A DNA stretch of 40,105 nucleotides from Flavobacteriales bacterium (GCA_049608805.1 JBMYXX010000003.1:1-40105); one strand, 5' to 3'; positions 953-28,100 are shown, numbered from the stretch's first letter. Translations and numbers: made by a program. The notes: generated from the letters alone by a model not told the origin.

Positions 953-1648
953 ATGGAAATCATCGCTAAAACATTGCTCTTTTTACATGTGTCTTTCGGG
1001 TTTGCCAGCCTTGTGCTTTTCTGGCTTCCTGTGTTCTTAAAGAAAGGAGGGAAGGGGCACGTCATTACAGGAAAGCTTTATGTCATTGCCATGTGGATTG
1101 TTGTAACAACAGCAGCGTTACTAAGCGTGAAGAATGTCCTTATCGGTAAGTATTTCATGGCGGCTTTTCTTGGGTTTATATCGCTGATTACTGCAAACCC
1201 ACTTTGGTATGGTATGGCAATACTTAAGAAGGAAAAAGGCGAAACATGCCGGAAGGGTAGACTGTTGTTCGAGTCGCTAATACTCGTTTACAGCATCGGG
1301 CTGCTTGGTTCTGGATTGTATGATGTGTGGCTGGACAATAACCCCAATGTGTTGCAGTTCATCTTCGGTGGACTTGGGCTAACGGCCATTCCGACCATTC
1401 TTCAACTTCGCAAAACAGATTCGGAAAAACCCGATCGAATAAAAGAACACATGGTCGGTCTGCTTACGAGCGGCATTGCTGCTTACTCAGCCTTTTTTGT
1501 ATTTGGAGCTTATACATGGGTAGATAAATTCTTGCCAGGTATGTGGGGAATTATTCCATGGGTTGCCCCAGGTGTTTTAGGCGGATTTGGAATTACGTTT
1601 GGTGTGAAATATTTCCGCAAGAAGGGAATGATTAAAACCCAAGCTTAA
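953..1648 (+). CDS. Multi-pass membrane protein, DUF2306-like
   Basis: LHVSFG...KKGGKGHVITGKLYV...EHM motif pattern with 6-7 TM helices. The ATG at 953 is preferred over the TTG at 914 because the promoter lies between them. Confidence 0.7.
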   Translation: MEIIAKTLLFLHVSFGFASLVLFWLPVFLKKGGKGHVITGKLYVIAMWIVVTTAALLSVKNVLIGKYFMAAFLGFISLITANPLWYGMAILKKEKGETCRKGRLLFESLILVYSIGLLGSGLYDVWLDNNPNVLQFIFGGLGLTAIPTILQLRKTDSEKPDRIKEHMVGLLTSGIAAYSAFFVFGAYTWVDKFLPGMWGIIPWVAPGVLGGFGITFGVKYFRKKGMIKTQA

Positions 1649-3021
1649 ATCTCATTCAATTTCGTGAGATTGGTTTTGTGAACTGGCCGTTGTGAAGAAT
1701 CGTGGTTGCCAAGAATTAGAATCGAAAACGTCTCTTCAGAATCGATATTAAATATTCGGTTTGAGTTTAGGAAATCGTAGCGTGAGCAAATTCTGTTTTG
1801 GTCAGATAGGCGTTTTACAAGTTGCTTGTTAACCGAATCGGAAAGGGTAGAGCCTTTTAAAACCAGTCCAACCGTTCCTCTTTCCGAGCACAAACTATTG
1901 CATAGTTCGGTGAAAAGCACGTTGGTGTGCAGTCCACCATTCGTTGAGTTTTGAAAACGTGAATCTTCGTAAATTGAATCAACCGCTAAGTCCGTTGCTT
2001 CTTCGTGTTCTAACAACCAGTCGAATAACAAAGGATGAGAGGTTTCCAGTTTGCCCAGAACTGTTTCAAGTTCTTGTTGAGATTGAATTTCGTTCACTTT
2101 TGGCAAAACAATATGGCAGAAGAAACCTAAGTCAAAACCAACTTCTCCCCAAGGCGGATTGCCAATAATCACATCACATTTCGGAATGTGATTTGGTTCT
2201 ATTGCCAAACCATTGTGGTAATAAAACTCATGACCAAAATCGAAGTCTGGGTAGCCACTGTTTGGAGCAATAAGTGGATTGCCTAAAACAAAGCTTTCGT
2301 TCAATCCTGAATACAAATTCATATTCCCAATAGCTTCCAATACTTGAAGCTTGGCAATTTCAAGCGATAGTGAATCAGCTTCAATGGCGTAGAAATTCAG
2401 TGCAATCTTTTTTAGCTCTTGCTTGGAGAAAGTTAGATGCGTTTTGTAGTAACGAAGAATGGATAAAAGAAAACTTCCTGTTCCGCAGGAATAGTCTGCA
2501 AATGAAGTACCTAGGAACAAACCGTGCACGCGCTGAACTTGTGATTCAGTTTTGTTTGATGAAGAAAACTTAGGAATTCCAGTGTTACTCTCAACGTAGT
2601 TGTCGAGCGTAAACTGCACGATTTTATCGGCCAATTCATCTGGCGTGTAGAACGAACCGATTGAATCTAAATTCTCGGCATCAGCTACCAGTTTTCCGTC
2701 TGCGATTGGGAATTCCATCAGCAACATCATCTCATACAAATGAGATAGATTAGCTCTAATGAACTCTTGCTTAGTAAACCAAGTTTTGAACTGGTTTAGA
2801 GCTTCTTCTTCAACATCTGTAAGCTCGTTTAAAACCTGAGCAAACAAAGATGCTTTGGGTAAATCATCACCAAAAACAATCCCCAAAACACCTGCCTGCA
2901 ACCGATAGATTGAGTTGTAGTATGCTGTAGGGTTCGCTATTGCGTTGTCCCTAATCTCGGTTTGGCGAGAAACAACATCAAGGATAACCTCCGAGATTTT
3001 ATGGCAAATACTGTTGAGCAT
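1645..3021 (-). CDS. N6-adenine DNA methyltransferase-like protein (Eco57I/type IIG-like MTase core), orphan
   Basis: Motif X GSFYTP, motif I ADYSCGTGSFL and motif IV DVIIGNPPW occur in gamma-class order. The ORF ends soon after motif VIII. Its stop overlaps the convergent gene's stop at TTAA 1645-1648. Confidence 0.8.
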   Translation of the reverse strand: MLNSICHKISEVILDVVSRQTEIRDNAIANPTAYYNSIYRLQAGVLGIVFGDDLPKASLFAQVLNELTDVEEEALNQFKTWFTKQEFIRANLSHLYEMMLLMEFPIADGKLVADAENLDSIGSFYTPDELADKIVQFTLDNYVESNTGIPKFSSSNKTESQVQRVHGLFLGTSFADYSCGTGSFLLSILRYYKTHLTFSKQELKKIALNFYAIEADSLSLEIAKLQVLEAIGNMNLYSGLNESFVLGNPLIAPNSGYPDFDFGHEFYYHNGLAIEPNHIPKCDVIIGNPPWGEVGFDLGFFCHIVLPKVNEIQSQQELETVLGKLETSHPLLFDWLLEHEEATDLAVDSIYEDSRFQNSTNGGLHTNVLFTELCNSLCSERGTVGLVLKGSTLSDSVNKQLVKRLSDQNRICSRYDFLNSNRIFNIDSEETFSILILGNHDSSQRPVHKTNLTKLNEI

Positions 3022-8559: not shown

Positions 8560-9261
8560 TCATGAAGCCGGTTTCTTTGAATTACTAAAGACCGCCACAT
8601 CAGGTATTCCCTTGCGGTTTTTGATTACTTGAATTGGGTCTCCTAACTGCTTTTCTAGCACAGAGCAATGCACAGGATGCACGTAAACCAAGAAAAGCGG
8701 CCGGGAACGATTAAAAGCCGGTTTAACCTTCTTCATCAACCCAGCAACAGCTTCTTCATCAAACGGGTTAAAGAGATAAATCACGTCAACCTCATCTGCA
8801 ATGTCGTATTGCAAAGCATCTCCAGCAACCAAGTCAAAACTGGTGGACGGAAACTTGTCTTTAACTGTTTCTATGTTTTGCTGGGCAATGACATTCAGCT
8901 CTGCCGCATACTCTACACCAATTACTTTTTTAAAGCCAGCTTCTGCGGCTAGAATGATTGCTCGGCCTTTCCCAGAACCAATATCTAGGAATACTTTATC
9001 TCCAAAATTGAACGGTAAAGCATTCATGGCACGTTCAAAAATAACCGAACTAGAAGGCTGATATAAATGACCTCCCATCTTTGAATCGGCCTCAATAGAT
9101 AGTTCATCTGGTGCGTGGGCACCAAAGGTTTGAATGCCTAATTCGCGTTCTTTTTGCCATTCTTTTAAACCCATAGAGCAAGTGTTGCTAAAACCACGGT
9201 GCTTTATTGAATAAAGCAGGTGTTCTAACCACAGAAATTTGCCCTTGTGCTTAAAGTCCAT
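8560..9261 (-). CDS. Class I SAM-dependent methyltransferase
   Basis: FLDIGSGKGR motif I, VIGVE, GDA and DVIYLFNPF. Confidence 0.88.
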   Translation of the reverse strand: MDFKHKGKFLWLEHLLYSIKHRGFSNTCSMGLKEWQKERELGIQTFGAHAPDELSIEADSKMGGHLYQPSSSVIFERAMNALPFNFGDKVFLDIGSGKGRAIILAAEAGFKKVIGVEYAAELNVIAQQNIETVKDKFPSTSFDLVAGDALQYDIADEVDVIYLFNPFDEEAVAGLMKKVKPAFNRSRPLFLVYVHPVHCSVLEKQLGDPIQVIKNRKGIPDVAVFSNSKKPAS

Positions 9262-9266
9262 TGCTT

Positions 9267-9274
9267 CAAAGTTA
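9267..9274 (-). promoter_or_regulatory. -7 promoter element, near-leaderless
   Basis: Minus-strand TAACTTTG ends 5 nt before the ATG at 9261. Confidence 0.6.
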
Positions 9275-9376
9275 GAAGGATAACCGTCTTATACAGAGAT
9301 TGGCAAACAAGTCTTTTGAACCAAAATTGCTAATATTGTAAGAGTAAGTGTTAATCTGACACTAAGTAAAATCTCC

Positions 9377-10756
9377 ATGAAAACACGACTGCTTTTAGTT
9401 CTATTCGTTCTTCCATTAGTAGGTTTCTCCCAAGTACCGTGCAGTGTTTCGCTAGGTGAGGATATTGTTCAGTGCAACGGAAATCCAGTAACGCTTTCCG
9501 CTGTAAGCATGGGAACTGCATCTGAAGATTCGTTACGAATTGTCTATGATGCAAGCCAAGGTACCACAGGGTTAGTTGGCGCTTCTGAAGTCTATCTTCA
9601 TTCAGGGATTCAAACCGTGCCGTTCGGAGGTTGGGAATATGTTATTGGAAATTGGGGTTTTGATGATGGTCTTGGAGAGATGACATCGCTTGGCAACGAC
9701 ATGTGGTCAATCACAATTCATGTTGAGGATTATTACGCTTATCCTGGTGGAACCAACGTTATTGGTCTTTGGATGGTTTTTAGAAATGGTGATGGCACCC
9801 AAACGGGTAAGGATGATACCGATAACGACATCTACATTGAGACATCGAACAACAACACGAGTACATTTTCTGGTGTAACTGGAACCGATATTCTTGGTTC
9901 GGATGGAAGCTATTTTTGGGGTAATGCTGAAACAACACAGAGCATCACAGTTTCGCAGACTGGGACTTATTCGGTAACCTTTACAGACGGTGTTGGCTGT
10001 ACGAGTTCTGATGATATTTATGTAGAGTTTGGCTCTGGAAACGTATCCGTAAACCTAGGAGCAGACACGGTAATCTGCAATGGCGAAATTATTACGTTAG
10101 ATGCTGGCGCTGGATTTTCTTCTTACGATTGGAGCACCATGGAAACGAGTCAGACATTAGACGTGAGCACTCCTGGAGATTACTCGGTTACAGTAACAGA
10201 CGCTTCTGGTTGTACGGGCATCGACCTGATAAACATTCAGACTGGCGCATCTCCGTTGGCAGATTTCTCTTACGAATCTATAACTGGAACAACCGTAGAA
10301 TTTACGGAAACAGGAATTGCAGGAACCACCATTCTTTGGGATTTTGATGGAGACGGAAACGTTGATGAAACTACAGCAGCTGGCGCATCTGTTCAGTACG
10401 ATTTTGGTGCCGAAAGTGTTTTTGGCGTTACCATGATTTCCGAAAATGGTTGTGGTTCTGATACTGCCACGCAAAACGTTTTGGTGCAAGATGTAGGTGT
10501 TGAAGAATTGAAAGCTGAAATTGGTTTTAACGTGTATCCTAATCCTGCTAAAGACAGATTGGTTGTTGCCATTACAAACGCAACGGTTACGGTTAATTCA
10601 GTTCAAATCTTGGATTTACAAGGCCGGAAGGTGAATGAGATTTCCACGTTTTCAAATTCAACAATCATCAACATTAACAAACTGCCAAAAGGATTCTACG
10701 TCTTACAAGTAGCTACTTCAAAAGGCATTATTAATCAACGCATTTTAAAACAATAA
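9377..10756 (+). CDS. T9SS type A secreted protein: CBM98-like domain, Ig-like repeats and PKD, no catalytic domain
   Basis: Signal peptide, VYLHSG..W..VIGNWG..MT..EDYY..MVFRNGDG..DIY domain, Ig/PKD repeats and CTD VYPNPAKD...LPKGFYVL. Confidence 0.8.
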   Translation: MKTRLLLVLFVLPLVGFSQVPCSVSLGEDIVQCNGNPVTLSAVSMGTASEDSLRIVYDASQGTTGLVGASEVYLHSGIQTVPFGGWEYVIGNWGFDDGLGEMTSLGNDMWSITIHVEDYYAYPGGTNVIGLWMVFRNGDGTQTGKDDTDNDIYIETSNNNTSTFSGVTGTDILGSDGSYFWGNAETTQSITVSQTGTYSVTFTDGVGCTSSDDIYVEFGSGNVSVNLGADTVICNGEIITLDAGAGFSSYDWSTMETSQTLDVSTPGDYSVTVTDASGCTGIDLINIQTGASPLADFSYESITGTTVEFTETGIAGTTILWDFDGDGNVDETTAAGASVQYDFGAESVFGVTMISENGCGSDTATQNVLVQDVGVEELKAEIGFNVYPNPAKDRLVVAITNATVTVNSVQILDLQGRKVNEISTFSNSTIININKLPKGFYVLQVATSKGIINQRILKQ

Positions 10757-10758
10757 CT

Positions 10759-11661
10759 ATGAAGAAACTGATACTTAGCTGTGCCCTTGTTGGAGGTGCT
10801 TTCGCGCTGCAAGCGCAAACAGAAATTACCATTACACTAGACACAAAAGACTTGTTTAATGTTGATTGCAACTTGCTTGGCGATGGTGCTGGCGGACCTG
10901 CTCAGGTAAACAAGGTTTATATGCACTCTGGTGCGTGTTCTGAGAACCGTGGTAGCAACATGAGCCAGTCGGCAGAAGATTATTGTGCTGATCAAATTGT
11001 GCCGTTTGCATCTGATGTTTGGCAGCATGTAGTAGGTAATTGGGGTGCTGCTCCGCAGGATGATGGCGTTGGTGAAATGACGCATGAAGGCGATGGAATT
11101 TACTCCAAAACCTTCATCATGGAAGACTATTACAGCGATCCTAATATTGTGAGTACGGAAACGAACTCAACAGGAACAACCGCTTCTGCACCGCTTGATC
11201 CGAACAATCCGGTTTACCTGCTTGGTTTGGTTTTTAGAAATGAAGATGGAACCGCTTCTGGCCGCGATCAGCAAGGTTGCCAAGACATTTTTGTAATTAA
11301 CGTTCAGGGAAATCCTACCGTTATCAATTCAACAGATAATTCGGCTGCAGACTTTGTAACGTTTGAGAAAAACTCTGTTGGTATTGAAGACCGAAGTATA
11401 GCCTACGACTTGTTTGTTGGTCCTAACCCAGCAACAGACCAAGGCTTGGTTAGAATTAGTGTTTTGGATGATGTGAAAGACGCAACCTTCAGCATTACAA
11501 ACACAATAGGGCAGCAAGTTTACACGCAAGCTGCGCCACTAAAAGTGGGCAAGAATGTTCTTCCGTTTAATGTAAGTGAGCTTAGAAACGGCATTTACAT
11601 TGTAAACATTTCAAGTTCAAAAGGACTTTTAATGCAAGAAAGACTAATTGTAAATCATTGA
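10759..11661 (+). CDS. T9SS type A secreted protein with a single CBM98-like domain
   Basis: Signal peptide, VYMHSG..WQHVVGNWG..EMT..EDYY..LVFRNEDG..DIF and CTD GPNPATD...LRNGIYIV. It starts 2 bp after the previous gene. Confidence 0.78.
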   Translation: MKKLILSCALVGGAFALQAQTEITITLDTKDLFNVDCNLLGDGAGGPAQVNKVYMHSGACSENRGSNMSQSAEDYCADQIVPFASDVWQHVVGNWGAAPQDDGVGEMTHEGDGIYSKTFIMEDYYSDPNIVSTETNSTGTTASAPLDPNNPVYLLGLVFRNEDGTASGRDQQGCQDIFVINVQGNPTVINSTDNSAADFVTFEKNSVGIEDRSIAYDLFVGPNPATDQGLVRISVLDDVKDATFSITNTIGQQVYTQAAPLKVGKNVLPFNVSELRNGIYIVNISSSKGLLMQERLIVNH

Positions 11662-11680
11662 TTTTTAGCCACTCGGCACT

Positions 11681-14524
11681 ATGAAAAACCTCATTTCCAT
11701 TCTGTTCTTTTCACTACTTGCTAGCGCGAGTTTTGCGCAAGTTGTAAGCACCGATATTGCTTACATAACTGTTGAAGATTCTGTCACACTTACGTTCAAC
11801 AGTAACGAAGGAAATGCGGCACTTTCAGGCACAAACCCAGTTTACATTCATACGGGTTTAATAAAAGACAATAGCGATTACAGCGGAGATTGGAAGCGCC
11901 AAGTTGGGCTTTGGGGAGAAACCGAATCTTACCAGTTAATGACCAGCCAAGGAAGCGGTATTCATTCGAAGGGAATTAATATCGAAGACTTCTATGGTAC
12001 TGGAACTTGGGATGGCGTTCGTGCCCTAGCCATGGTTTTTAGAAATGCTGATGGAAGCACAGTTGGTCAAAATGCCGATGGAAGTGATATTCTGATTCCA
12101 GTTTTTGAAACCACAACAGAATTGGAGGCGGTAATTATGGATCCAATTGTTGCTGGGAAATTGGTTGAACAAAATGATGGATTAATCTTTGAAGTACGTT
12201 CAAACAATCCTTCAAGTCTTATTAATCTGTATCAGGATGGAGCATTAATTGGCCAAAATTTAGGCGATGCAGCTTCGGCTAGTGTTTCTACAGCAACGGC
12301 CGGTAAATCTTACTTGAGTTACACGGTAGAGCAGGGCGGTAATACCATTGAAGACAGCACCTATTTCGTAGTTACAACAGCACCAACGATTTTGGATGTT
12401 CCTGCGGGAATTGAACCTGGAATTACCGTTGTTGATGATAATACAGTTACGCTTTGCCTTTGGGCTCCGTTTAAGGAGAATGTCTATTACATAGGCGATC
12501 AAACTAATTGGGAAGTTGACCCTGCTTACCAGATGAATAAATCGGTAGATGGAGAGCGTTACTGGATTACGTTAACTGGAATCACTCCTCAAACTGAATA
12601 CAGATTTCAGTATTTGGTGGATGGCATGTTTAAAATTGCCGACCCTTACTCTTACAAGATTTTGGAGGAACAAAGCGATGCCGGAATCAATCCAAACATC
12701 TACCCGAATCTTATTGACTACCCAGACGAAACACACGGAAATGTGTCTGTTTTTGAAACTGATATGGTTGAATACGAGTGGCAAACTACTGGATACCAAC
12801 GTCCAGCAAAGGAGGACTTAATTATCTACGAACTACTTATTCGAGATTTCTCTTTCCGTAAGAGTTTTACGTCTGTAATTGACTCACTTCCGTATTTGAA
12901 AAAGCTTGGCATTAACGCCATTCAGCTAATGCCAATTATAGAGTTTGAAGGCAACGATTCTTGGGGATACAACCCAATTTTCTTCACGGCAGTAGATAAG
13001 AAATACGGACCTGCCAATAGACTTAAAGAATTGATTGATGCTTGCCATGCAGAAGGCATTGCAATCATTTTAGACATTGTACCAAATCATGCATTTGGTA
13101 GAAACCCGTATGTAAAAATGTATTGGGATGCAGGTTTGCAACGGCCAGCTTGGAACAGTCCATATTTCAATCCCGTTGCCACGCACCCGTTTAGTGTTGG
13201 GTACGATTTTAACCACGAGAGCCAGTATGTACGGCAGATGTTTCACAGAATATTCAAGTATTGGATTGAAGAGTTCAATATTGATGGATACCGAGTTGAC
13301 CTTTCGAAAGGACTGACACAGACCAACAGTGGTAATGATATTGGTGCTTGGACAAACTACGATCAAAGTAGGGTAAATATCATCTTCGATTATGCAAATA
13401 CCGTTTGGTCGTATTCGCCAGACTTCCATATGATTTTAGAGCACTTGGGCGACAACGGAGAAGAAACTGCCTTAGCAAATGGCAACATCATGCTTTGGAG
13501 CAAGGCTCAGGAGCAATTTAAACAGGCAACAATGGGTTATCAGTCTAGTTCTAACTGGGGTTGGCAAATGAGTTACCAAGACAAAGGTTGGAACCTTCCG
13601 AGAGCCATTGGCTACATGGAAAGCCATGATGAGGATAGACTGATGTTTGAAAACGTGACATACGGAAATGGTACAAACCCTGACCACAATGCGGCAGATA
13701 CAACCACAGCGCTTTATAGAATGCAAGCAGCTGCGGCTATGTTTACACTTGTTCCTGGCCCAAAAATGATTTGGCAGTTTGGTGAGTTGGGCTACGATGT
13801 TTCTATTTTTTGGCCATCAGGTTTAGACCTTTCTAGAACGGCCGCAAAACCAATCCGTTGGAACTATTTCTGGGAAGAAGCACGCCAAGATTTATACCGT
13901 GCTTGGGGCGCCATTAACACGCTAAAACACATGCAACCGGTTTATTCTGTTACCGATTTCGGGATGGATTTAGATGGAACAGGTAAGCGTATGTGGCTTA
14001 CTCATCCTGATATGAAAACCAGCGTTACCGCAAACTTTGATGTAGTGGGTTTTTCAATGACACCAGACTTTCATCAAACAGGAACTTGGTATAATTACAT
14101 GACTGGAGAGCCACTTCAGGTTGACCAAACCAACATGGAGTTGTTTTACGAGCCAGGTCAGTATTACATTTTTACCGATCAGCCGTTGCCAGTTCCAAAT
14201 CTTGATTTTGTACCAGAACCGGGAGACCCAGATGGAATTGCTGAGAACGATCCGTTAAACACGCGGGTTTATCCAAATCCAACCACCGGGAATACGTTTA
14301 TCGAATACGATTTAGGAACCGATAGAGCGCGTTCTATTGAGATTTGGGATATAACCGGAAGACCAGTAAAACGATTCACAGAAAATCTAAGCAGGGTTGG
14401 TTTAAACCGCGTTATGTGGGATGGAACCGATGAAAGTGGAAGCCACGTTTCAAATGGCCAATACATCATCACCATTACTACGGATAACTACCGAAGTTCT
14501 AAGATGGTTGTAGTGCAGAGATAG
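11681..14524 (+). CDS. Secreted GH13 alpha-amylase family enzyme (CBM98-like + CBM48 + GH13 + T9SS/FlgD-like CTD)
   Basis: IYELLIRDF, WGYNP, DIVPNH, catalytic DGYRVD / ILEH / ESHDE, QFGELG, CBM48-like LWAPFKENVYYIGD and CTD VYPNPT...WDGTD...NGQY. Confidence 0.92.
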   Translation: MKNLISILFFSLLASASFAQVVSTDIAYITVEDSVTLTFNSNEGNAALSGTNPVYIHTGLIKDNSDYSGDWKRQVGLWGETESYQLMTSQGSGIHSKGINIEDFYGTGTWDGVRALAMVFRNADGSTVGQNADGSDILIPVFETTTELEAVIMDPIVAGKLVEQNDGLIFEVRSNNPSSLINLYQDGALIGQNLGDAASASVSTATAGKSYLSYTVEQGGNTIEDSTYFVVTTAPTILDVPAGIEPGITVVDDNTVTLCLWAPFKENVYYIGDQTNWEVDPAYQMNKSVDGERYWITLTGITPQTEYRFQYLVDGMFKIADPYSYKILEEQSDAGINPNIYPNLIDYPDETHGNVSVFETDMVEYEWQTTGYQRPAKEDLIIYELLIRDFSFRKSFTSVIDSLPYLKKLGINAIQLMPIIEFEGNDSWGYNPIFFTAVDKKYGPANRLKELIDACHAEGIAIILDIVPNHAFGRNPYVKMYWDAGLQRPAWNSPYFNPVATHPFSVGYDFNHESQYVRQMFHRIFKYWIEEFNIDGYRVDLSKGLTQTNSGNDIGAWTNYDQSRVNIIFDYANTVWSYSPDFHMILEHLGDNGEETALANGNIMLWSKAQEQFKQATMGYQSSSNWGWQMSYQDKGWNLPRAIGYMESHDEDRLMFENVTYGNGTNPDHNAADTTTALYRMQAAAAMFTLVPGPKMIWQFGELGYDVSIFWPSGLDLSRTAAKPIRWNYFWEEARQDLYRAWGAINTLKHMQPVYSVTDFGMDLDGTGKRMWLTHPDMKTSVTANFDVVGFSMTPDFHQTGTWYNYMTGEPLQVDQTNMELFYEPGQYYIFTDQPLPVPNLDFVPEPGDPDGIAENDPLNTRVYPNPTTGNTFIEYDLGTDRARSIEIWDITGRPVKRFTENLSRVGLNRVMWDGTDESGSHVSNGQYIITITTDNYRSSKMVVVQR

Positions 14525-14553
14525 CTTTTGATAGGCTAGATTACTTGCCACAA

Positions 14554-15963
14554 TTAGCTCTTCCGCTCCAACAGCACAACGCTTTCTACGTGGTGCGTGT
14601 GCGGGAACATATCTACCGGACGAGCCTTTTTTACTTCGTAGTTCTCGCTAAGCAATTGTACATCGCGTGCTTGTGTAGCAGGATTACAACTCACATAGAC
14701 GATTCGTTCAGGTAAAAGCTCGTTTAAACGTGCTATTACATCAGCATGCATTCCTGCTCGTGGTGGGTCGGTAATCACAACATCAGGTTTGCCTTCTTTC
14801 TCTATCAATTCTTTGGTGAATACATCCTTCATATCGCCAGCGTAGAACGAAGTGTTCTCGATGCCATTCAATTCAGCATTCAGCTTGGCATCAACAATTG
14901 CTGGTTCTACGTATTCAATACCCACAACTTTTTTGGCTTGCTTGGCCACAAACTGAGCAATGGTTCCCGTTCCCGTGTATAGGTCGTAAACCACTTCATC
15001 ACCAGTTAATCCAGCAAAATCGCGCGTAATCTTGTACAGTTCATACGCCTGCGGACCGTTGGTTTGGTAGAACGATTTCGGCCCAACACGGAACTTCAAT
15101 CCTTCCATTTCTTCCATGATAAAGTCGTTGCCAGAATGAACCTGAATGTCTAGGTCGGAAATCGTATCGTTTGGTTTATCGTTAATCACGTATAGCACAG
15201 AAGTTAGCTGTGGAAACCCAGCAACCAACGTATCTAAAATCAACTTGATGTCATTCGGGCGGTCTTCAGCTACGCTTAGAATAACCATCCACTCGTTGGT
15301 CATTGTGCTACGCACGATTAGGTTTCGCAAAAAGCCCGTTTGCTCGTTTAGGTTGTAATAAGAGAAATCGTTTGCCAAAGCAACCTCTCTAACCTTGTTT
15401 CTGATACCATTACTCGGCTCAGCCATCAAATGACATTCCTCCACATCAAGCACCTTATCCCAACGACCTGGAACATGAAATCCCAGTGATGGAATATTAT
15501 CAAAATCTTTTCCGCTAGCCACTTGCTCGGCTGTTAGCCATTGCCTGTGCGAAAAGCTGAATTCCAACTTGTTACGGTAATTGAAAATCTCGGCAGAACC
15601 CAAAATTGGCTCAAATGCGTTAACCTCAACTTTACCGATGCGTTGCAGCGCATCGTAAACCTGCTTCTGCTTAAACTCAAGTTGTTTTTCGTAGCTCAGG
15701 TTTTGCCATTTGCAACCACCGCAAACACCGAAATATTTGCATTTCGCTTCAATCCGAATAGGGGAGAACTCCTTAATCTTCTGCACATAACCTTCTGCGT
15801 AGTTTTTGCGCTTGCGTTTAATCTGAATGTCGCACACATCGCCAGGCACTACGCCTTTCACAAAAACCACCATATCATTTACCCGCGCAAGGGCCTGACC
15901 CTTATCCGCAATATCAAGAATGGTTACATCTTCCAGTATCGGCTTTTTCCGCTTTCTTCCCAT
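14554..15963 (-). CDS. rlmD: 23S rRNA (uracil-1939-C5)-methyltransferase
   Basis: TRAM domain, CKYFGVCGGC Fe-S motif, SFYQTN, DLYTGTG, DPPRAG, YVSCNP and DMFPHTHHVE. The start is taken at ATG 15963. Confidence 0.95.
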   Translation of the reverse strand: MGRKRKKPILEDVTILDIADKGQALARVNDMVVFVKGVVPGDVCDIQIKRKRKNYAEGYVQKIKEFSPIRIEAKCKYFGVCGGCKWQNLSYEKQLEFKQKQVYDALQRIGKVEVNAFEPILGSAEIFNYRNKLEFSFSHRQWLTAEQVASGKDFDNIPSLGFHVPGRWDKVLDVEECHLMAEPSNGIRNKVREVALANDFSYYNLNEQTGFLRNLIVRSTMTNEWMVILSVAEDRPNDIKLILDTLVAGFPQLTSVLYVINDKPNDTISDLDIQVHSGNDFIMEEMEGLKFRVGPKSFYQTNGPQAYELYKITRDFAGLTGDEVVYDLYTGTGTIAQFVAKQAKKVVGIEYVEPAIVDAKLNAELNGIENTSFYAGDMKDVFTKELIEKEGKPDVVITDPPRAGMHADVIARLNELLPERIVYVSCNPATQARDVQLLSENYEVKKARPVDMFPHTHHVESVVLLERKS

Positions 15964-15967
15964 GGCG

Positions 15968-15975
15968 CAAAAGTA
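15968..15975 (-). promoter_or_regulatory. -7 promoter element of rlmD, leaderless
   Basis: Minus strand reads TACTTTTG-CGCC-ATG. Confidence 0.6.
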
Positions 15976-16134
15976 TGAGAACTGACGCACGTAATTGCCA
16001 ACGGAAATTATTGTAATCGTTTGGTTGAAAGCCGCAAATTTATTCTCGTGTGGAGCGCGGTTCTGGCTGATTTATTCTTTAAACCAGCAAGGTTGTAGTC
16101 TCCAGTTTGTTGTAGATTAAGTACAATAATGTGG

Positions 16135-16170: not shown

Positions 16171-17856
16171 ATGAGAAAAATATACTTCAGCACGATTGCC
16201 GCTTTTATCGCAATTAGTGTTAACGCGCAAAACCCTACAATAACGTTTAGTTCAGATAATATTTGTGCGGGAGAGACTATAACAGCAACAGTAACAGGTG
16301 CCGAAACGAGCCTTGCTAGTTCAGCAGCAGACAACAATGCTAATAATGGGGTAATGTTTGACTTGGTGGGCGAAGCCGGAGCCATTATTAAAGGCTTTAC
16401 TGTTAACACAGAAACTACCGCTTCTATGGAAATATATTATCGCACAGGTAGTTATGCAGGGTTTGAAGACAGTAACGTAGGATGGACACTTTTAGGTAGT
16501 TCAACAGGCGTTGCTTTGGGCACTGGAGTAAATACTGGAGTTGAGTTAGATTTAGAAATTTTACCAGGACAAACGCTGGGATTTTACATTACCTGTACTT
16601 CTGGGAGTGAATTTATTCAGTATGCTGATGGAACCTCCGTGGGCACAGAGCTCGGTTCAGACGACTACATTAGCATACTTTCTGGGGTAGGGAAGAGTTA
16701 TCCTTTTGCTGCTACTAACACGCCTAGAGATTTTATTGGCTCCGTGATTTACGAACCTGTTCCGACTTTTGTTTATTGGAATGTGAGTTCGAGCGATACT
16801 AATATTGTAGAGTTTACACCAACAAAAACGCAAGTAGTTTCGGTTGTTACAACTGCCAATGGTACCAGCTTGGGAGCAAGAAAGGTTGTAACTGTAAATG
16901 ATTACCAGGTAGAAGCAACGGCTGACCCGGCTGTTCTTGGCTGGAATGAGTCGAGTACGCTTACGGCTGATGTAACCTTGTCAACTGGATTGGCAACCAC
17001 GTTTGAAGGAATTTCGTGGTCAGATGGAGCCATGTTTGACCTTTCTGCAACCTCAGAATTATCGGTTACTGGTTTTGCAATTGCCACTCCAAATGTTGCA
17101 GGCGATGTGGAGGTTGAAGTGTTTTACAAGACGGGAAGTTATGTTGGTTTTCAGGCAAATGCCGGGGCTTGGACCAGTTTAGGTACAAGTACCATTCCTA
17201 CGGGGGCAGGAGAGGAAATTGAATTGGCTAGTTCCGTGATGATGGCTGCTGGACAAACCATGGCCTTTTATATTACTCGATTAGATGGCGAACATATTGG
17301 CCACGTTAGTGGAACTTCAGTTGGAGCCGTTTACTCATCAGATAGTTACATCTCCATTAAAGAAGGGATTACATTGGAACATCCATTTGGAGCAGAGTCT
17401 GCTTTTCCTCGCGTGCCAAGGTGTATTGTGTACTATGAGGTAGAAAACCCAGCAGGGCTTAACTATTCTTGGAGTGAGAGTGTTGGTACAAACGCTTCTG
17501 AAACCGTTATGCCAAATGCGGATGTTACCTACGTTGTAACGGTGGATAATGGCGATTGCGAAACAACTGCCGATGTATCCGTTTCCATGGCGGTTGGTAT
17601 TGATGAAGCAATTGCGGAAAACATATCTGTTTACCCAAATCCAGCAACTGAGAATATTACCATTCAATCTGAGAATGTAATTGAAGTAGAATCAATTAGT
17701 TTGATGGATGCCACGGGAAAAATTGTTCAGGCGATAACGCCAGGTGTTTCTTTTTCTACGGTTACAATCCCTGTAAACCAATTGGCAAAAGGAGTGTATT
17801 TGCTACAATTGAATATGGCTGGCGGGATAGTTAACCACAGGCTTATGGTGCAATAG
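16171..17856 (+). CDS. T9SS type A secreted protein with two copies of an unassigned beta-rich domain
   Basis: Signal peptide, duplicated G.MFDL...YRTGSY.GF....W..LG...GQT..FYIT..GTSVG...D.YISI..G....PF..PR, and CTD VYPNPATE...LAKGVYLL. Confidence 0.82.
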   Translation: MRKIYFSTIAAFIAISVNAQNPTITFSSDNICAGETITATVTGAETSLASSAADNNANNGVMFDLVGEAGAIIKGFTVNTETTASMEIYYRTGSYAGFEDSNVGWTLLGSSTGVALGTGVNTGVELDLEILPGQTLGFYITCTSGSEFIQYADGTSVGTELGSDDYISILSGVGKSYPFAATNTPRDFIGSVIYEPVPTFVYWNVSSSDTNIVEFTPTKTQVVSVVTTANGTSLGARKVVTVNDYQVEATADPAVLGWNESSTLTADVTLSTGLATTFEGISWSDGAMFDLSATSELSVTGFAIATPNVAGDVEVEVFYKTGSYVGFQANAGAWTSLGTSTIPTGAGEEIELASSVMMAAGQTMAFYITRLDGEHIGHVSGTSVGAVYSSDSYISIKEGITLEHPFGAESAFPRVPRCIVYYEVENPAGLNYSWSESVGTNASETVMPNADVTYVVTVDNGDCETTADVSVSMAVGIDEAIAENISVYPNPATENITIQSENVIEVESISLMDATGKIVQAITPGVSFSTVTIPVNQLAKGVYLLQLNMAGGIVNHRLMVQ

Positions 17857-21563: not shown

Positions 21564-23048
21564 TTACTTTTTCAAGTCTTGTGCGTCAATTCTATACTTG
21601 TGAACCCACGCATCTGGAACATCCTTCTTACGCGTTTTTCTCATCTGCTTAAGCGCAGGCTTTAACGCATCGTACTTGGTAGAGTACACGTAGAACCACT
21701 TACGCTCTTCGTTGTAAACAATAATGGCGTCACGCTTTTTGGTTTTCCAAATATCTACGGCTTTCCAAGCATTTTCCACTTTTCTGAACGATTCAATTAC
21801 AACGTAGTAACCACTTTCAAGCTCAGACTTGTTCATTCCAATAGAACCATCTTCGTTTCTGTACGGAGTAATTTGCTGCAACATGCCTTTAAGCTTGTTG
21901 GTATCAATCATTCGGCTGTTAACGTCTTCAATTTCTTTGTTGAGGTCATCAATTTCTTTCTGCAATCTGTCAAGATCAGCATCATGCTCATCAACACGAG
22001 TTTTAACGCCATCAACTTCGTTTCCTAGAGAATCGATTTTGCTGTTAAGCTCGCCTTCTAGAGAATCCATTCTAGCATAAAGCAATTCGTTGTCTTGCTT
22101 AATACCTTCCATATCGCTCTCTAGCTTCTTGAATTTCTTCTTAAATCCATCTAGATGAAAGCCAATCATAATTTCGTTTGAACCTGGAGAACCTGGGTTT
22201 CCGTCAATTCCGTTCAGTGTGAAATCGTAAGCATATCCGACAATAAACTTGTCGGCTATTTTAAACCCTAAACCTGCAACCGGACCTGTTTCTGCTCTCC
22301 AAGTGAAGGCGGCCCAAACAATTTCCTTGTAGCCAAACTTAACCGTACCATCATAAGAGAGGTTGGTTTTGTAAGGCAACCATCTAACCATTGCTGATGG
22401 TGCAATAAGCCAGTCTTTCTTTATCCAGAAATCGTAACCAACATAAGCGCTAAAGTGCCTAGAAAGGTCGTAGGTAAAATCACGTTCTCTTGCTCTTATT
22501 TCTCCAATGCTTTCTAAAACATGAGGCGCTGCAATACCAATTTCAAGAAGACCTTTCCAGCTATAACGTAAACCAGCATCCATATCAAAGGTTGTGCTTA
22601 CAACGTTACCATTGGCTAGAATAGCATCTGTTGGGTCTTCAACCACAGCATCGGTAAAATCCAGTTGTGTGTGGTTAATTCCAATTCCTACACCTAAACT
22701 TAATTGGTGGTCTGGCGCCAGTTTAATGTCGTGTGCGTAGGCCAACTTAGCGTTGATGGTTGAAACAAAGTTGGTTTTGTCATAAACCAAGTTGGTACCC
22801 ACGTTGGTGTTTTTTCCAAGTGGAGTGTGCAAACTTACCCAACCGGTCGTAGGGGAGTTAGCCACACCTGTCCATTGGTTTCTGAAGTTGGCATAGCCCA
22901 TAAGTCCTTCGCCATAACCAGCGTTTGATGGGTTAATTAGGAACCTGTTTTCCTTGTAAAGGCTGGACAAACGTGTTTGCTGAGCAAAAGCTGTAAAGCT
23001 CTGTCCCATAAGGCCAAGTAGGAAAAGTGTTACGTATATCTTTCTCAT
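21564..23048 (-). CDS. PorP/SprF-family T9SS membrane protein with C-terminal coiled coil and SPOR-like domain
   Basis: INPSNAG, RNQWTG..NSP.T and GYAYD...GSNEIMIGF barrel end, then heptad-rich helix, then GYYVVIESF...NA...FYVY...DAWV. Confidence 0.88.
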   Translation of the reverse strand: MRKIYVTLFLLGLMGQSFTAFAQQTRLSSLYKENRFLINPSNAGYGEGLMGYANFRNQWTGVANSPTTGWVSLHTPLGKNTNVGTNLVYDKTNFVSTINAKLAYAHDIKLAPDHQLSLGVGIGINHTQLDFTDAVVEDPTDAILANGNVVSTTFDMDAGLRYSWKGLLEIGIAAPHVLESIGEIRARERDFTYDLSRHFSAYVGYDFWIKKDWLIAPSAMVRWLPYKTNLSYDGTVKFGYKEIVWAAFTWRAETGPVAGLGFKIADKFIVGYAYDFTLNGIDGNPGSPGSNEIMIGFHLDGFKKKFKKLESDMEGIKQDNELLYARMDSLEGELNSKIDSLGNEVDGVKTRVDEHDADLDRLQKEIDDLNKEIEDVNSRMIDTNKLKGMLQQITPYRNEDGSIGMNKSELESGYYVVIESFRKVENAWKAVDIWKTKKRDAIIVYNEERKWFYVYSTKYDALKPALKQMRKTRKKDVPDAWVHKYRIDAQDLKK

Positions 23049-23081
23049 TCGAGTTGGATTTCGTGTTTGTGCTAAATATTT

Positions 23082-25118
23082 TTATTTCAAAATTGTAACG
23101 GCACCGTCAAAACGATCTTCACGGCCATCACATTCAATTACATAGTAGTAGGTTCCATCAGGAAGAGGGTCTTCGTTAAAATCTCCCTTCCAATCGTTTT
23201 TGTATGCATTAGAGCTGTAAACCTCTAGTCCCCAACGATTGTAAACTTTAAGAACACAGTCTGAATAGCAATCTATGTTACCTACATAAAACCTATCGTT
23301 TGTACCATCACCGTTAGGGGTGAAAAGGTTAACTGGCTTTAGGTTGTAATCAGTTATTACTTCAATACTCATGCTAATTGAACTGAAACAGCCGTTTAAA
23401 TCGGTGCCAGTTACGCTGTAAGTAATGTTTTCTTTCGGGTCAATGCTAGTAGGCATATCGCTCATTGGGTCATCTAGGTAATCTGAAGGAGTCCAATCGT
23501 AAAAGTTAGCGCCTTCTACCCAAAGCGGAATGTTTTCTCCAAGGCTTATAGATGTGTCGTTGCTTATTGTAAGCTCTGGCAATAACCAAGAGATAACTCC
23601 AATATTGGTTTCTCCTTCACAACCGTGCTCATCTGTAATGAGTACTTCGTACAAATTGGTTGTATCAACCGTAATAGACTGAGTAGTTTCTCCTGTGCTC
23701 CAAAGGTTTGAAACGCCATTAGGATTAACCGTAAGCGTTACATCTTCTCCCTGGCAGAAAGCAAGCGGACCATCGGCAGTAATTACAGGCGTTGGCAATG
23801 GCCAAACATGTACATAATGCTGAACGGTGTCTCTACAACCATCGGTTGTATTAGCAACCATGGTTACTAGGAAACTATCTGCGGTAAAGTATTCATGGAA
23901 TGGATTTGCTCCGAAACCAGCGTTGCCATCAGCAAAATCCCATTGGTAATCAGAAACTGTTGCTCCTTTTGGGTCTGTGGTGTTTGTGAATGCATTTGTT
24001 TGACCAAAGCAAACTTCGGTTGCTGTAAAGTCAGCCTCTGGAGTAGGGTACACCTCAACCAAATGCGTAACTGTGTCTGGGCAACCAAAAGATGTTAGCC
24101 CGATGAGTTCAACACTTGCTGGCCCAGCAGAAGTAAATGAGAAAGTTGGGCTTTCTTCTGTAGATGTTCCTTCAGAACCAAATGTCCAAGCATAGGAGAT
24201 GGTTCCAACCACGTTTTGTGTGGTATTGGTAAACGCTACGTCTGTATTCTGACAAGCATTATCGAAGGTAAAACCAACAAACGGGTAAGGCGCAATTGTC
24301 ATTAGCTGAAAGGTGTCTATTGTACAACCTTGGTCAGAAACCACTTGCAAACCAACTTGGTAATCTCCATCGGCAGAAAACTGATTGGTAATCATGGTGC
24401 CTGTAGCATCATCAAACAATCCGTTACCATTCAATTCCCAGTTGTACTGATCAACAGTACCAGAACTTACGGTAGAGGTGGCGGTAAGCTCAGTATCGTC
24501 TCCTAAACAAACCTCTGCAACTGCAAATTCTACCGTTGGCATTGGATCTACGGTTACGTTTTCTGTTGTGGTAGATTGGCACCCTTGATCGCTAGTAACC
24601 TGAAGACCTACAACGTAAGTTCCAGCATTAACAAAATCGTGTGCTATTACACTTCCTGTTGCATTATCGTACAAGCCATCGTTATCTAAATCCCATTCCC
24701 AAGTGGCAATAGAGCCGCTAGAAATAGTAGAAGCATCTGCTAGGGCAGAAACGGTTCCTTCACAAACATCTGGAGCTGTAAAGTCTGCTGCCGGAACCGG
24801 GTTAACGGTAATTAGCTTGTAAACAGACTGTGGCGCATCCATATCTGTGGTTATTCTAAGACCAACGTTGTAAACGCCCGGAGCATTAAACTGGAAACCA
24901 ATACTTGGTCCTGAAGCATCAGTAAAGGAGCCATTGGCATTTAAGTCCCATTCCCAGGCCGTTATTGTTGCTCCGCCAGAAACAACAGATGTACTGGTGA
25001 AAGTTGTCTGAGACCCCTCACAAACCGTGGTGGTTGTGTAGTCAACAGAATCGATAGTTGCGTGTGCCTGAAAGGCCAGCAACGTAAGTAAAGAAAACAG
25101 GATTCTCATCTTATTCAT
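23082..25118 (-). CDS. PKD-repeat protein with T9SS type B (gliding-motility-associated) CTD
   Basis: Signal peptide, PKD repeats with WDLDNDG-type loops, and CTD NLFTPNGDGTND.F...YNRWG...W.G...LPDGTYYY. Confidence 0.9.
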   Translation of the reverse strand: MNKMRILFSLLTLLAFQAHATIDSVDYTTTTVCEGSQTTFTSTSVVSGGATITAWEWDLNANGSFTDASGPSIGFQFNAPGVYNVGLRITTDMDAPQSVYKLITVNPVPAADFTAPDVCEGTVSALADASTISSGSIATWEWDLDNDGLYDNATGSVIAHDFVNAGTYVVGLQVTSDQGCQSTTTENVTVDPMPTVEFAVAEVCLGDDTELTATSTVSSGTVDQYNWELNGNGLFDDATGTMITNQFSADGDYQVGLQVVSDQGCTIDTFQLMTIAPYPFVGFTFDNACQNTDVAFTNTTQNVVGTISYAWTFGSEGTSTEESPTFSFTSAGPASVELIGLTSFGCPDTVTHLVEVYPTPEADFTATEVCFGQTNAFTNTTDPKGATVSDYQWDFADGNAGFGANPFHEYFTADSFLVTMVANTTDGCRDTVQHYVHVWPLPTPVITADGPLAFCQGEDVTLTVNPNGVSNLWSTGETTQSITVDTTNLYEVLITDEHGCEGETNIGVISWLLPELTISNDTSISLGENIPLWVEGANFYDWTPSDYLDDPMSDMPTSIDPKENITYSVTGTDLNGCFSSISMSIEVITDYNLKPVNLFTPNGDGTNDRFYVGNIDCYSDCVLKVYNRWGLEVYSSNAYKNDWKGDFNEDPLPDGTYYYVIECDGREDRFDGAVTILK

Positions 25119-25131
25119 CCTTGATTATGTC

Positions 25132-28100
25132 TTATTTAATAATGTCGAATCTTAATACTGATTGCTGCTCGTTTCCAACAATTCTTAGGTAATACAGTCC
25201 GTTAGAAAGCTCGCTAACATTTAGCTGAACAGTTTCTGCGGCATCCATTCTTGCAATTTGCTTAGACAGAATAAGCTGACCAGAAGTTGAAACAACTTCA
25301 AAAGTCAGTTCTGTACTAACAGTTTTGCTAGGCTGAATAAACAGTTCGTTAGAAGCAGGGTTTGGATAAAGTCCAAAGCTTACTACATCGTTATCGTTAA
25401 TTCCAATAGTGGTTGTAGAAACAAGTTGCGTAATTGTTTCGCTGCCGCAATCGTTAGTAACGGTAAGAGTTACCATGTAATCGCCATCCAGCGCATATAC
25501 GTGTACTGGAGACATTTCTGTACTCGTAGAATCATCGCCAAACTCCCATAGATAAGTGTCTCCAAACTGAGACTCGTTGGTGAATGAGACTGCTGTTCCG
25601 ATTAGCGCCCAGTCAAAGTCGGCCGTTGCAAGCATCTGATCAGCAGTAACTTCTACGTCTTCAGCAAAAACACAACCGTTCACATCCATAATAGAAACAG
25701 AATAGATGCCATCAGAAAGGCCAATGTAGTCTCCGTTTGTCTGAACGCTTCCGCCATCTAGCATGTAGTTGTAAGAAGGCGTTCCACCAATTCCCGTTAC
25801 GTGAATCTCTCCAGTAAAGTCTCCCTCGCAGCTAACGCTAACAATTGTGTCAAGAGATAAATCCATGATAGGAGGAGCAGTTAGCATAATAGTATCAGAA
25901 TCTAAGCAGCCATTGGCATCCTGAACAAACAGAAGGTGGTTTCCACCATTTAGTCCAGCCAAAGTAGGACTAGCTTGGTACGAGTCTCCACCATCAGAAG
26001 AGTAGGTGTAACCCGGTGTTCCGCCCATAGCGGTTATTGTTGCCGTACCGCTATTCTCATTCGGGCAAGCAGGGTTGGCCAAAATTGTGCTGGTAATTTC
26101 TACGGAAGTAGTTGGTTCACCAATCGCAACTTCAACGCTATCAATACATCCATTAAGGTCTTGACCGTATAGCGTGTAAGTACCAGCGCCAAACCCAGAA
26201 AATAAACCTTCTGAGCCAAAGCTGATGTTGTCATCAGAGTAAACATATGTTGGAGTTCCGCCTGTTCCGATAAGCTCAACGCTGCCCGATGTAGAATCAA
26301 GACAAGCTGCATCGGTAACATCAGAATCAAGAATAAACACTGAAGCTGGCTGTGAAATAATAACGCCTTCAGAAGCGGTACAACCGTTTGCATCCTGAAC
26401 TACAACTAAGTAGTTGCTAGCAGGCACATCGGCAAACATTCCACCATTAGCAATAAAAGACATTCCACCATCACTAGAATACTCATAGCCTGGTGTTCCG
26501 CCATTAGCAATTACCTCAATCTCACCAGATGCATCGCCAAAGCAAGCAACAGGAACAGAATTGGTTTCAATAGTAAGTTCAGTTGGTTCAAACACTGTTT
26601 CTGTTAGCTCATCTAAACAACCGTTTGCATCCATAACAGTTACGGTGTAAGTGCCTGCTGCTAAACCATCAAAAAGCGCACTTCCTTGGAAGCTAATACC
26701 ATCAATAGAATATGTATAGTCTGGTGTTCCTGAAGATGCAGCAACCTCTATAGAACCATTAGCTTCTAAGTAGCAATTAGCGCTATCTACACTAACTAAC
26801 GATAATTGAAGAACGCCTGGTTCGGTAAGGTTAACGTGAAGCGTGTCTGAACATCCGTTGGCGTCTAAAACACCTACAATGTGTGTTCCTGCAGCCAACC
26901 CAGTAAACAGGGCGTCTGGTCCGTAAGCACCGCCATCAATGTTGTATTCGTAATCGACAACACCGCCAGTACCAACAACAGTAATTTCTCCAGAGTTGTC
27001 TCCATTACAGAGTAAATCCTCAGAACTTACATAGGTTAAAATAAGTGTGTCTGGTTCTGTTAGGGTAATGGTTGTGTCAAACACGCAAAGGTTGGCGTCT
27101 GTTATTTGAATGTCATGAACACCAGCTTCTAAACCGGTAAACATTCCAGAAGCTTGCTGAACTCCAGCATCTACACTGTACATATAAGAAGAAGTTCCGC
27201 CTGTTCCGCTAATGCTGATTTCTCCTGTAGCAGCACCATGGCATAGAATGTCCGTTGTGCTAACTACGTTAATTCCCAATGTATCGCTAGGCTGACCAAC
27301 CGTTCCAGAAACAGTGAATTCACAACCGTTAGCATCAAACGCGGTAATATCATAAGTACCCGCTTCAAGTCCGCCAAAAGTTACACTGGCCTGAGGCGTT
27401 CCACCATCAATACTTAGCGTCCAAGGAGAAGCGGCAGGCGGAACTGCAACTGCGGCTAACTCTCCAGTAGCTTCTCCATAGCACAACACATCAGTAGGCG
27501 TAAGAGTGAAATCAGGTAAATCAAAGATTTCAATCGTTTGAGTTACTGAACTCATACAGAACTCAGGACTGGTAACCGTTAGCATTACATCATATATACC
27601 GAAAGTTGAGTAGATATGAGAAACATCTGTAAGTGTAGAACTGCTTCCATCTCCTAAATCCCAGTTGTATGTTCCGGCATCAGAAGTGTTAACGAAATCA
27701 GCAGCGGTTCCTTCACAAACATCACTAAATGTGAAGCTTGCAGCAGGAAGGTTGTTTACAGTAACTGAAGCTGTATGTACATCAACACAACCGTTGTCGT
27801 TGGTTGTGGTTAGTACTACAGTATAAACACCATCTGTTAGATAAGTGTGTGTAGGATTTGCATCTGTAGATAATGGGCTGGAATCTCCAAAATCCCAGTT
27901 ATAAGTAAGTGTCCCGTCTCCCGTGCTCAGGTTTGTGAATACCGTTGCCGTTCCTTCGCATTCTGTAGAAGCAGAGAACAAAGCAGTAGGGGAGTCATTA
28001 ACTGTTACAGATTGGGTTGACACATCTTCACAACCATTATCGCTAGTAACTGTAAGCGTTACGGTGTAAGTACCGTCTAATGCATAAGTATGACTTGGGT

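Follow-up and report, generated by a model that had tools for sequence, protein, structure and literature searches.

The window analysed here, a stretch of 40,105 bases that makes up the entire contig C3 of a metagenome-assembled genome (MAG) from a Flavobacteriales bacterium (GCA_049608805.1 JBMYXX010000003.1:1-40105), carries at positions 9377 to 14524 three consecutive genes for two non-catalytic proteins and an α-amylase, all sharing an N-terminal domain and a C-terminal type IX secretion system (T9SS) sorting domain. This trio probably represents the outer part, detached and exported by T9SS, of a split "hybrid PUL" (polysaccharide utilization locus; the term is from McKee et al. 2021, as quoted in an excerpt of PMC10792170) for α-glucan, that is, starch, glycogen or a similar polymer, with the SusC/SusD pair (SusCD) on contig C324 of the same genome as its importer. 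This reading is preferred because the C324 pair is orthologous to SusCD pairs that adjoin the trio in relatives, and its counterpart stands in a PUL rich in glycoside hydrolase family 13 (GH13) genes in the related genome G001. The MAG, with a completeness of 90.8%, amounts to 3.15 Mb spread over 454 contigs.

The three open reading frames (ORFs) lie on the + strand, as do all features of the trio named below, and are separated by intergenic gaps of 2 bp (genes 1 and 2) and 19 bp (genes 2 and 3), a tight packing that the original prediction for this DNA had described and that the ORF calls bear out; they constitute one unit, probably an operon. Gene 1 (9377..10756) encodes a non-catalytic T9SS cargo protein of 459 aa with a signal-like N-terminus, a domain resembling carbohydrate-binding module family 98 (CBM98), a Cys-containing Ig-like region, a PKD-like domain (aa 303-370, 10283..10486), for which the scores stay below the cut-offs (PF00801 22.4 bits against 23.5; PF18911 19.2 against 27), and a T9SS type A C-terminal domain (CTD). 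Gene 2 (10759..11661) encodes a protein of 300 aa in which a signal-like N-terminus precedes an expanded CBM98-like domain that has conserved cysteines; a linker then leads to a type A CTD. Gene 3 (11681..14524) encodes an α-amylase of 947 aa in which a signal-like N-terminus is followed by a CBM98-like domain, a domain of ~100 aa, a CBM48-like domain, a GH13 region of GH13_47-like type and a type A CTD. A sigma-70 promoter and terminator scan of positions 9100-14700, a scan whose scope does not extend to Bacteroidota promoters, gave 8 promoter-like sites versus 12.0 expected and 5 terminator-like sites versus 4.8, numbers that do not rise above chance. A TAnnTTTG-like motif was noticed by eye upstream of gene 1, an observation that does not amount to a test.

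The domain of ~125 residues at the N-terminus is common to all three proteins (pairwise BLASTP E 5e-16, 1e-13 and 1e-10), and the motif first given for it is reproduced by the 27 invariant columns of a three-way alignment, namely VY.H.G, W, G.WG, MT..G, ED.Y, VFRN.DG, G and DI. For its further analysis, a profile, A3, was built from the domains of orthologues of genes 3 and 1 at related loci, 70 sequences in all. The domain covers aa 46-159 of gene 1 (9512..9853; hmmsearch with A3, E 4e-43, and a DUF4961 match of 20.6 bits, below the cut-off), aa 21-185 of gene 2 (10819..11313; hmmsearch full-sequence E 2.9e-15, BLASTP matches to genes 1 and 3) and aa 21-146 of gene 3 (11741..12118; A3 profile, structural model, Foldseek and VIA-align). 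The gene 2 domain is matched by A3 as three segments because of its loop insertions. No further copy was found in the genome beyond the three ORFs of the trio in a six-frame hmmsearch.

Against the sequences of the Protein Data Bank (PDB), the sole significant match of the A3 profile was BoGH13ASus (8dge/8dl1), residues 31-131, with E 5.6e-9; with the first 240 residues of gene 3 as phmmer query only chance-level matches were obtained in the same sequences, and with A1, a profile of three sequences, none. The fold was compared with the gene 3 domain modelled alone, since searches with the whole AlphaFold2 model of gene 2 (predicted local distance difference test, pLDDT, 84.4) were dominated by the CTD and their BoGH13ASus matches were noisy multi-domain alignments. 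The model of the gene 3 domain has a pLDDT of 94.5; in Foldseek all 12 matches with E <= 0.001 were chains of BoGH13ASus (E ~2e-6 to 5e-6, template modelling score 0.72-0.76), the next match having E 6.6e-3, and in VIA-align 112 of 126 residues were aligned to BoGH13ASus chain residues 49-164/169 with Z 14.4-14.5 and a root-mean-square deviation (rmsd) of 2.0-2.5 Å, the next Z being 7.8. The fold match thus belongs to the gene 3 domain, and the domains of genes 1 and 2 are tied to it by sequence. By sequence profile and predicted fold, the shared domain is homologous to CBM98, as the label "CBM98-like" had proposed, with an identity to the characterised CBM98 of only ~20%. It has been reported, according to excerpts of PMC11633381, that CBM98 is the N-terminal maltooligosaccharide-binding module of BoGH13ASus, an enzyme placed in GH13 subfamily 47.

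Among the three proteins, only that of gene 3 contains a GH13 domain (PF00128, 89.1 bits). The catalytic and C domains extend over aa ~365-834 (12773..14182), as delimited by PF00128 and by alignment to 8xx9/8xxa and 8dge/8dl1, and the alignment assigns the catalytic residues to D540 (13298-13300), E587 (13439-13441) and D650 (13628-13630). D540 is aligned with the position at which 8xx9 and 8xxa are distinguished by a D-to-A difference; the counterpart of E587 in BoGH13ASus is E523, the residue that 8dl1 carries in mutated form; and D650 lies within the motif ESHDE. All three residues are invariant in 38 orthologues. The intact D/E/D triad and the confinement of the catalytic domain to gene 3 hold as originally described. 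Among solved structures, gene 3 is closest to 8xx9 (E 1.3e-154) and then to BoGH13ASus (E 2.6e-93), the next family being of TreZ type (E 5.4e-31). For 8xx9, an unpublished α-amylase, no subfamily label was found, and no relevant paper naming 8XX9 turned up. By this ranking among solved structures, gene 3 may belong to GH13_47, of which BoGH13ASus is the founder. Between the CBM98-like and CBM48-like domains, gene 3 has an interval ~100 aa longer than that of BoGH13ASus, and this extra domain (aa 147-245, 12119..12415) is conserved in orthologues; it matches no Pfam family, and its best score in the ESM Atlas (residues 146-245), 0.77, is uninformative. The CBM48-like domain (aa 247-323, 12419..12649) scores 19.8 bits with PF02922 against a cut-off of 22.4, and the region aligns to 8xx9 and 8dge.

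All three proteins bear a T9SS type A CTD, as predicted, and the curated cut-offs are passed in each case: with PF18962 (cut-off 27 bits) genes 1, 2 and 3 score 49.2, 38.4 and 31.7 bits, and with TIGR04183 (cut-off 23 bits) 47.5, 36.7 and 39.2 bits. The CTDs are located at aa 386-459 of gene 1 (10532..10753), aa 221-299 of gene 2 (11419..11655) and aa 863-946 of gene 3 (14267..14518). For gene 2 the fold agrees as well, residues 211-300 of the AlphaFold2 model being matched among solved T9SS CTDs to that of mirolase (Z 11.0, rmsd 2.1, 78 residues aligned) and also to those of PorU, PorZ and NucA. The N-termini of the three proteins are hydrophobic and signal-like, ending ...GFSQ, ...LQAQ and ...SFAQ, as judged by eye. 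Meanwhile, the genome contains T9SS machinery, with SprA on C27 (572 bits), GldN on C15 (252.8 bits) and a PorP/SprF-family protein in the window itself, and at least 150 matches to the type A sorting domain; T9SS is therefore the usual route of this organism to the outside. It was also observed that one SusD match stands against these at least 150 sorting-domain matches in 3.15 Mb, and the genome appears far more reliant on T9SS cargo than on lipoprotein PULs.

The conservation of the trio was followed in 59 gene 2-family loci, which were obtained by a pattern-based scan with one genome per species and all come from records titled as MAGs, none of them from a cultured isolate; their labels include Flavobacteriales, Cytophagales, Bacteroidales, Marinilabiliales and Chitinophagales. 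Genes were mapped by BLAST against 35 query sequences from the studied loci and the window, a map in which genes unlike the queries can be missed. The amylase follows gene 2 in 55 of the 59 loci, with one to three ORFs between them in L013 and L019; of the four loci that have no following amylase, three end at a contig edge, and the fourth, L059, continues for 9.8 kb downstream. In 45 of the 59, gene 2 comes after a relative of gene 1 with a length between 456 and 1545 aa, and in most other loci with upstream sequence another T9SS-tailed protein takes that place. The three-gene order, for which a check across Flavobacteriales had been proposed, is accordingly well kept. In a FastTree phylogeny, 153 domain copies separate into three clades according to gene position, of 49, 49 and 55 members (support 0.905, 0.996 and 0.999), and the paralogues of the trio are therefore old; by this comparison of sequences, the unit is kept or moved as a whole. 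The neighbours in the relatives are α-glucan genes, comprising a major facilitator superfamily (MFS) transporter in 25 of the 59 loci as well as GH13 pairs, GH65 with HAD, GH31 and GH77. In addition, a LytTR-type response regulator was seen directly upstream of gene 1 in L016, L049 and L052 and two genes further upstream in L005 (4972-5691), and in the window the closest regulator-like gene is a LytTR-domain ORF (2-817) that opens the contig 8.5 kb upstream of the trio; a LytTR protein is a possible regulator of the trio. In L055, an IS200-type transposase gene (15386-15814) was found inside the α-glucan cluster, between GH31 and GH13 genes.

The original prediction had regarded the trio as an alternative architecture free of SusCD. 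On the contig itself the observation behind this idea stands, as none of the 27 ORFs called, some of them without any Pfam family, was identified as SusC or SusD by Pfam, and the SusC/SusD pair adjoining genes for carbohydrate-active enzymes by which a PUL is defined is lacking at the window locus. However, a search of the rest of the genome, which had been proposed as a check, located a single SusD match, on the 3.2-kb contig C324, where the C-terminus of a SusC comes before it and a T9SS-tailed protein after it. Compared over its length with its counterparts in L027, L055 and L048, the C324 SusD shows 46-48% identity, and for the C-terminal part of SusC the identity is 57-60%. The SusCD pairs of L027 and L055 are immediate upstream neighbours of the trio, in divergent orientation; those of L048 and L045 are placed within an α-glucan cluster, at 6-9 kb upstream. 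G001, the closest relative with long contigs, has the trio at 70% identity on a contig of 326 kb and, on another contig, the series GH13, GH13, SusC, SusD (83.7% identical to that of C324), T9SS-tailed protein (62.6%) and cyclomaltodextrinase, and the genome of the window has corresponding pieces, with the GH13 pair located on C82, a cyclomaltodextrinase gene on C247, and a maltose-type MFS gene divided between C228 and C49. In G004 a single cluster is composed of two T9SS-tailed proteins, gene 2, the amylase, HAD, GH65, GH13, GH13 and MFS, followed by SusD and SusC on the opposite strand; the second of the two T9SS-tailed proteins is a gene 1 relative that lacks the CBM98-like domain. SusCD is found on the same contig as the trio in G002 and G005, at distances of ~37 and ~82 kb, and a SusD orthologue is found on another contig than the trio in G003, G006, G007, G009 and G010; G008 yielded no SusD orthologue with the C324-type query. 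Altogether, 10 of the 11 trio-bearing genomes examined have the orthologue.

These results decide largely between the split hybrid PUL and a self-sufficient system in which T9SS-exported CBM98 proteins and the amylase would replace the outer-membrane apparatus of Sus, the products entering by some other route. The latter would accord with the 40-kb contig devoid of SusC/SusD, with the 55 of 59 related loci whose fetched flanks contain neither, with the MFS transporter that comes directly after the amylase in many relatives, and with the concept of a "PUL-free" T9SS mode, which is discussed in excerpts of PMC10792170. Yet the one SusCD pair of the genome is orthologous to the pairs adjacent to the trio in L027, L055, L048 and L045, an orthologous pair stands among GH13 genes in G001 and is clustered with the trio in G004, SusD orthologues accompany the trio in nearly all of the genomes examined, and MFS proteins are inner-membrane carriers, which leaves passage through the outer membrane without explanation. 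A SusCD-free system is thus very unlikely, and what was found corresponds to the split PUL that had been named as the counter-case to that idea. Beside the C324 pair, a further observation concerns the T9SS-tailed protein of ~340 aa that directly follows SusD on C324 and in G001 (L061:8796-9818), where SusE/F sit in Bacteroides; it has no Pfam family, the C324 protein is 33-39% identical to T9SS-tailed proteins before gene 2 in the Bacteroidales loci L009, L015 and L048, and some of its relatives carry weak CBM20, CBM48 or CBM53 signals.

Several points weigh against the split hybrid PUL as well. SusC/SusD occur inside the fetched flanks in only 4 of the 59 loci, with one more just beyond the flank, and the functional coupling of trio and SusCD may, on the genomic evidence, be looser than proposed or there may be none. 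The C324 SusD orthologue has 14 matches among PDB sequences, which carry generic SusD-like labels, none of them that of the Bacteroides thetaiotaomicron starch SusD; because these solved relatives are labelled generically, the predicted α-glucan role of the C324 SusD rests on gene context in relatives. The fragmentation of the MAG into 454 contigs hides the true distances between the parts of the system. Furthermore, the predicted glycan binding by genes 1 and 2 is based on homology at ~20% identity, and L059 (2975-5949, a Flavobacteriales MAG) retains relatives of both genes without the amylase, in whose place a MoxR/BatA-type operon is located.

The last two points also bear on another explanation, by which genes 1 and 2 are not α-glucan binders, their domains having diverged towards another glycan or a protein, for instance as amylase anchor, scaffold or adhesin, so that action on starch would be left to gene 3 only. 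Divergence of this kind would be in keeping with the three loop insertions and conserved cysteines of the gene 2 domain, which the other two domains lack, and with P0191, P0240 and P0173, which match the domain profile and have no glycosidase, their other modules being SprB or GEVED only. It is nevertheless unlikely, because ten positions (H57, W78, E/D82, M87, F/Y104, V119, F120, R121, G125 and D136 in gene 3 numbering), which include a His, a Trp and the VFR motif, are conserved within each of the three paralogue clades in 80% or more of the sequences, gene 2 stands directly before the amylase in 55 of the 59 loci, and the recurrent catalytic partners of the domain in sampled proteins are α-glucan enzymes (GH13 in 9 of 30, GH31 in 1 of 30). 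In genes 1 and 2 the CBM98-like domain is the only recognisable functional module. The gene 2 family consists of ~300-aa proteins with 161 matches, for which the precomputed Pfam annotation contains nothing beyond the C-terminal-tail models PF18962, PF13860, PF13585 and PF11589. Neither gene 1 nor gene 2 matches the SusE/SusF family PF16411 at E <= 0.01; the two are therefore probably functional analogues of SusE/F at most and not members of that family, and by analogy a SusE/F-like role is plausible for two proteins composed in this way.

In the split hybrid PUL proposed here, all three products would cross the inner membrane by Sec and then leave the cell through T9SS by means of their type A CTDs. 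Gene 3 would provide an exported endo-amylase with the outward-facing role of SusG, while genes 1 and 2 would most likely capture and hold α-glucan for it at or near the cell surface, in the manner of the lipoproteins SusE and SusF. The maltooligosaccharides released would enter through the single SusC/SusD pair of the genome, that of C324, and further steps may be carried out by periplasmic GH13 enzymes encoded on C82 and C247 and by import through the MFS transporter encoded across C228 and C49. Of this scheme, we infer secretion itself, attachment to the surface as opposed to release, the binding of glycan by the products of genes 1 and 2, joint transcription of the trio, and its functional link with the SusCD pair of C324. 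A wider generalisation may also be considered, in which T9SS-exported stand-alone CBM98 proteins would be a distinct, phylum-wide class of glycan-capture proteins that form with the amylase a surface amylosome-like complex held by processed CTDs, replacing SusE, SusF and SusG in uncultured Bacteroidota that have hundreds of T9SS cargo proteins and a single SusCD; this is speculative and rather doubtful.

The CBM98-like domain is found far beyond the trio. A search of 1.84 billion cluster representatives with the domain profile returned 891 proteins with E <= 0.001, of which 445 reach E <= 1e-10; the domain is matched in as many as five stretches of one protein. In a Pfam scan of 30 proteins sampled from these, 26 exceeded the cut-off of DUF4961 (PF16328), always over profile positions ~180-283, and for this reason the CBM98-like domain is, by profile comparison, equated with the C-terminal ~100 positions of DUF4961. 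The partners in the 30 sampled proteins were GH13 in 9, GH31 in 1 and SusE/F in 1. The gathering cut-off of DUF4961 is 27.1 bits, which gene 1 does not reach, and genes 2 and 3 are not among its matches; in the ESM Atlas gene 2 is placed beside DUF4961 clusters with a score of 0.93. Single proteins illustrate the range of arrangements: P0123 is a T9SS protein of 1770 aa with five matched stretches of the domain, P0246 has the domain at the N-terminus of a GH31 α-glucosidase-type enzyme, and P0133, a GH13 protein of 1701 aa, carries it together with SusE/F domains. CBM98, known solely from one gut amylase, hence proves to be widespread, occurring alone, repeated, and on GH13 and GH31 enzymes, and a function is thereby offered for the C-terminal part of DUF4961.

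As for the surroundings of the trio, both flanking genes lie on the - strand and agree with the methyltransferase and rlmD named originally, ORF and Pfam analysis assigning a class I methyltransferase to 8560-9261 and a TRAM and U5-methyltransferase protein, RlmD-like, to 14554-15990. Other T9SS-related genes are present on the same contig. A 561-aa type A cargo protein (16171-17856, + strand) has no other Pfam family and apparently consists of two similar halves, each with the motif (Y/F)Y(R/K)TGSY.GF. A T9SS cargo cluster (21567-30429, - strand) contains a PorP/SprF-family protein (494 aa, 21567-23048) and two PKD proteins, one of 678 aa with a CHU_C (type B) sorting domain and one of 1765 aa with PKD and SprB repeats and a type A domain; both PKD proteins show weak similarity to the Ig-like, Cys-containing region of gene 1. 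A 458-aa ORF (1648-3021, - strand) with weak matches to Eco57I and N6 DNA methylase may be a restriction-modification methyltransferase. The DNA of the window is present in seawater metagenome runs of one study, and no RNA run was among those listed for it.

With respect to its significance, the trio suggests that in free-living, largely uncultured Bacteroidota the layer that captures starch is made of T9SS cargo instead of lipoproteins, and that its genes can be separated from those of the SusCD importer. A trio of this kind would escape PUL predictors based on adjacency to SusCD, which matters for estimates of how much α-glucan is turned over in seawater. As a mechanism, this is a variation to be expected within the hybrid-PUL design. 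Gene 3 is a further member of a known enzyme type, and the delivery of PUL enzymes by T9SS is already known; the conserved pair of stand-alone CBM98 proteins exported by T9SS appears to be undescribed, as does the equation of the C-terminal region of DUF4961 with CBM98. In the accessible portions of the literature naming CBM98 or GH13_47, no account of such stand-alone proteins was found, and no literature naming DUF4961 was found.

Among known systems, the closest is BoGH13ASus (BoSusG) of Bacteroides ovatus (PDB 8DGE, 8DL1 and 8DL2), a surface α-amylase of the composition CBM98-CBM48-GH13_47 whose module order is also that of gene 3, with a likeness of E 2.6e-93 in the catalytic region and Z 14.5 in the CBM98 fold. 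According to excerpts of PMC11633381, the gene for BoGH13ASus, a lipoprotein, lies within the Sus locus, and these excerpts report no stand-alone CBM98 proteins for B. ovatus. Gene 3, in contrast, ends in a type A CTD for T9SS, lacks a lipobox cysteine, contains the extra domain of ~100 aa and is situated away from SusCD. Its combination of PF16328, PF00128 and PF18962 is annotated in DUF4961 amylases of cultured isolates, namely Roseivirga species and Fulvivirgaceae BMA10, and an architecture of the gene 3 type is therefore already in databases, although those amylases have ~1210 aa and a module order unlike that of gene 3. SusE and SusF of B. thetaiotaomicron are non-catalytic exported starch binders encoded with a surface amylase, which is the role proposed for genes 1 and 2; they are lipoproteins with starch-binding domains of their own (PF16411), whereas genes 1 and 2 encode T9SS cargo with CBM98-like domains and no match to that family. 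In Flavobacterium johnsoniae, excerpts of PMC11885536 describe T9SS-secreted amylases whose activity in the culture supernatant serves as a read-out of T9SS, and excerpts of PMC5127042 describe ChiA as a fully secreted T9SS enzyme of a SusCD locus for chitin utilization. With hybrid PULs, as presented in excerpts of PMC5127042, PMC11885536 and PMC10792170, the present system would share an endo-acting enzyme with a type A CTD that is exported by T9SS and product uptake via SusC/SusD; it differs from them in the physical separation of the T9SS genes from the SusCD locus, which is seen in this genome as in the majority of the examined relatives, and in that two conserved cargo proteins have the CBM98-like domain as their only recognisable functional module.

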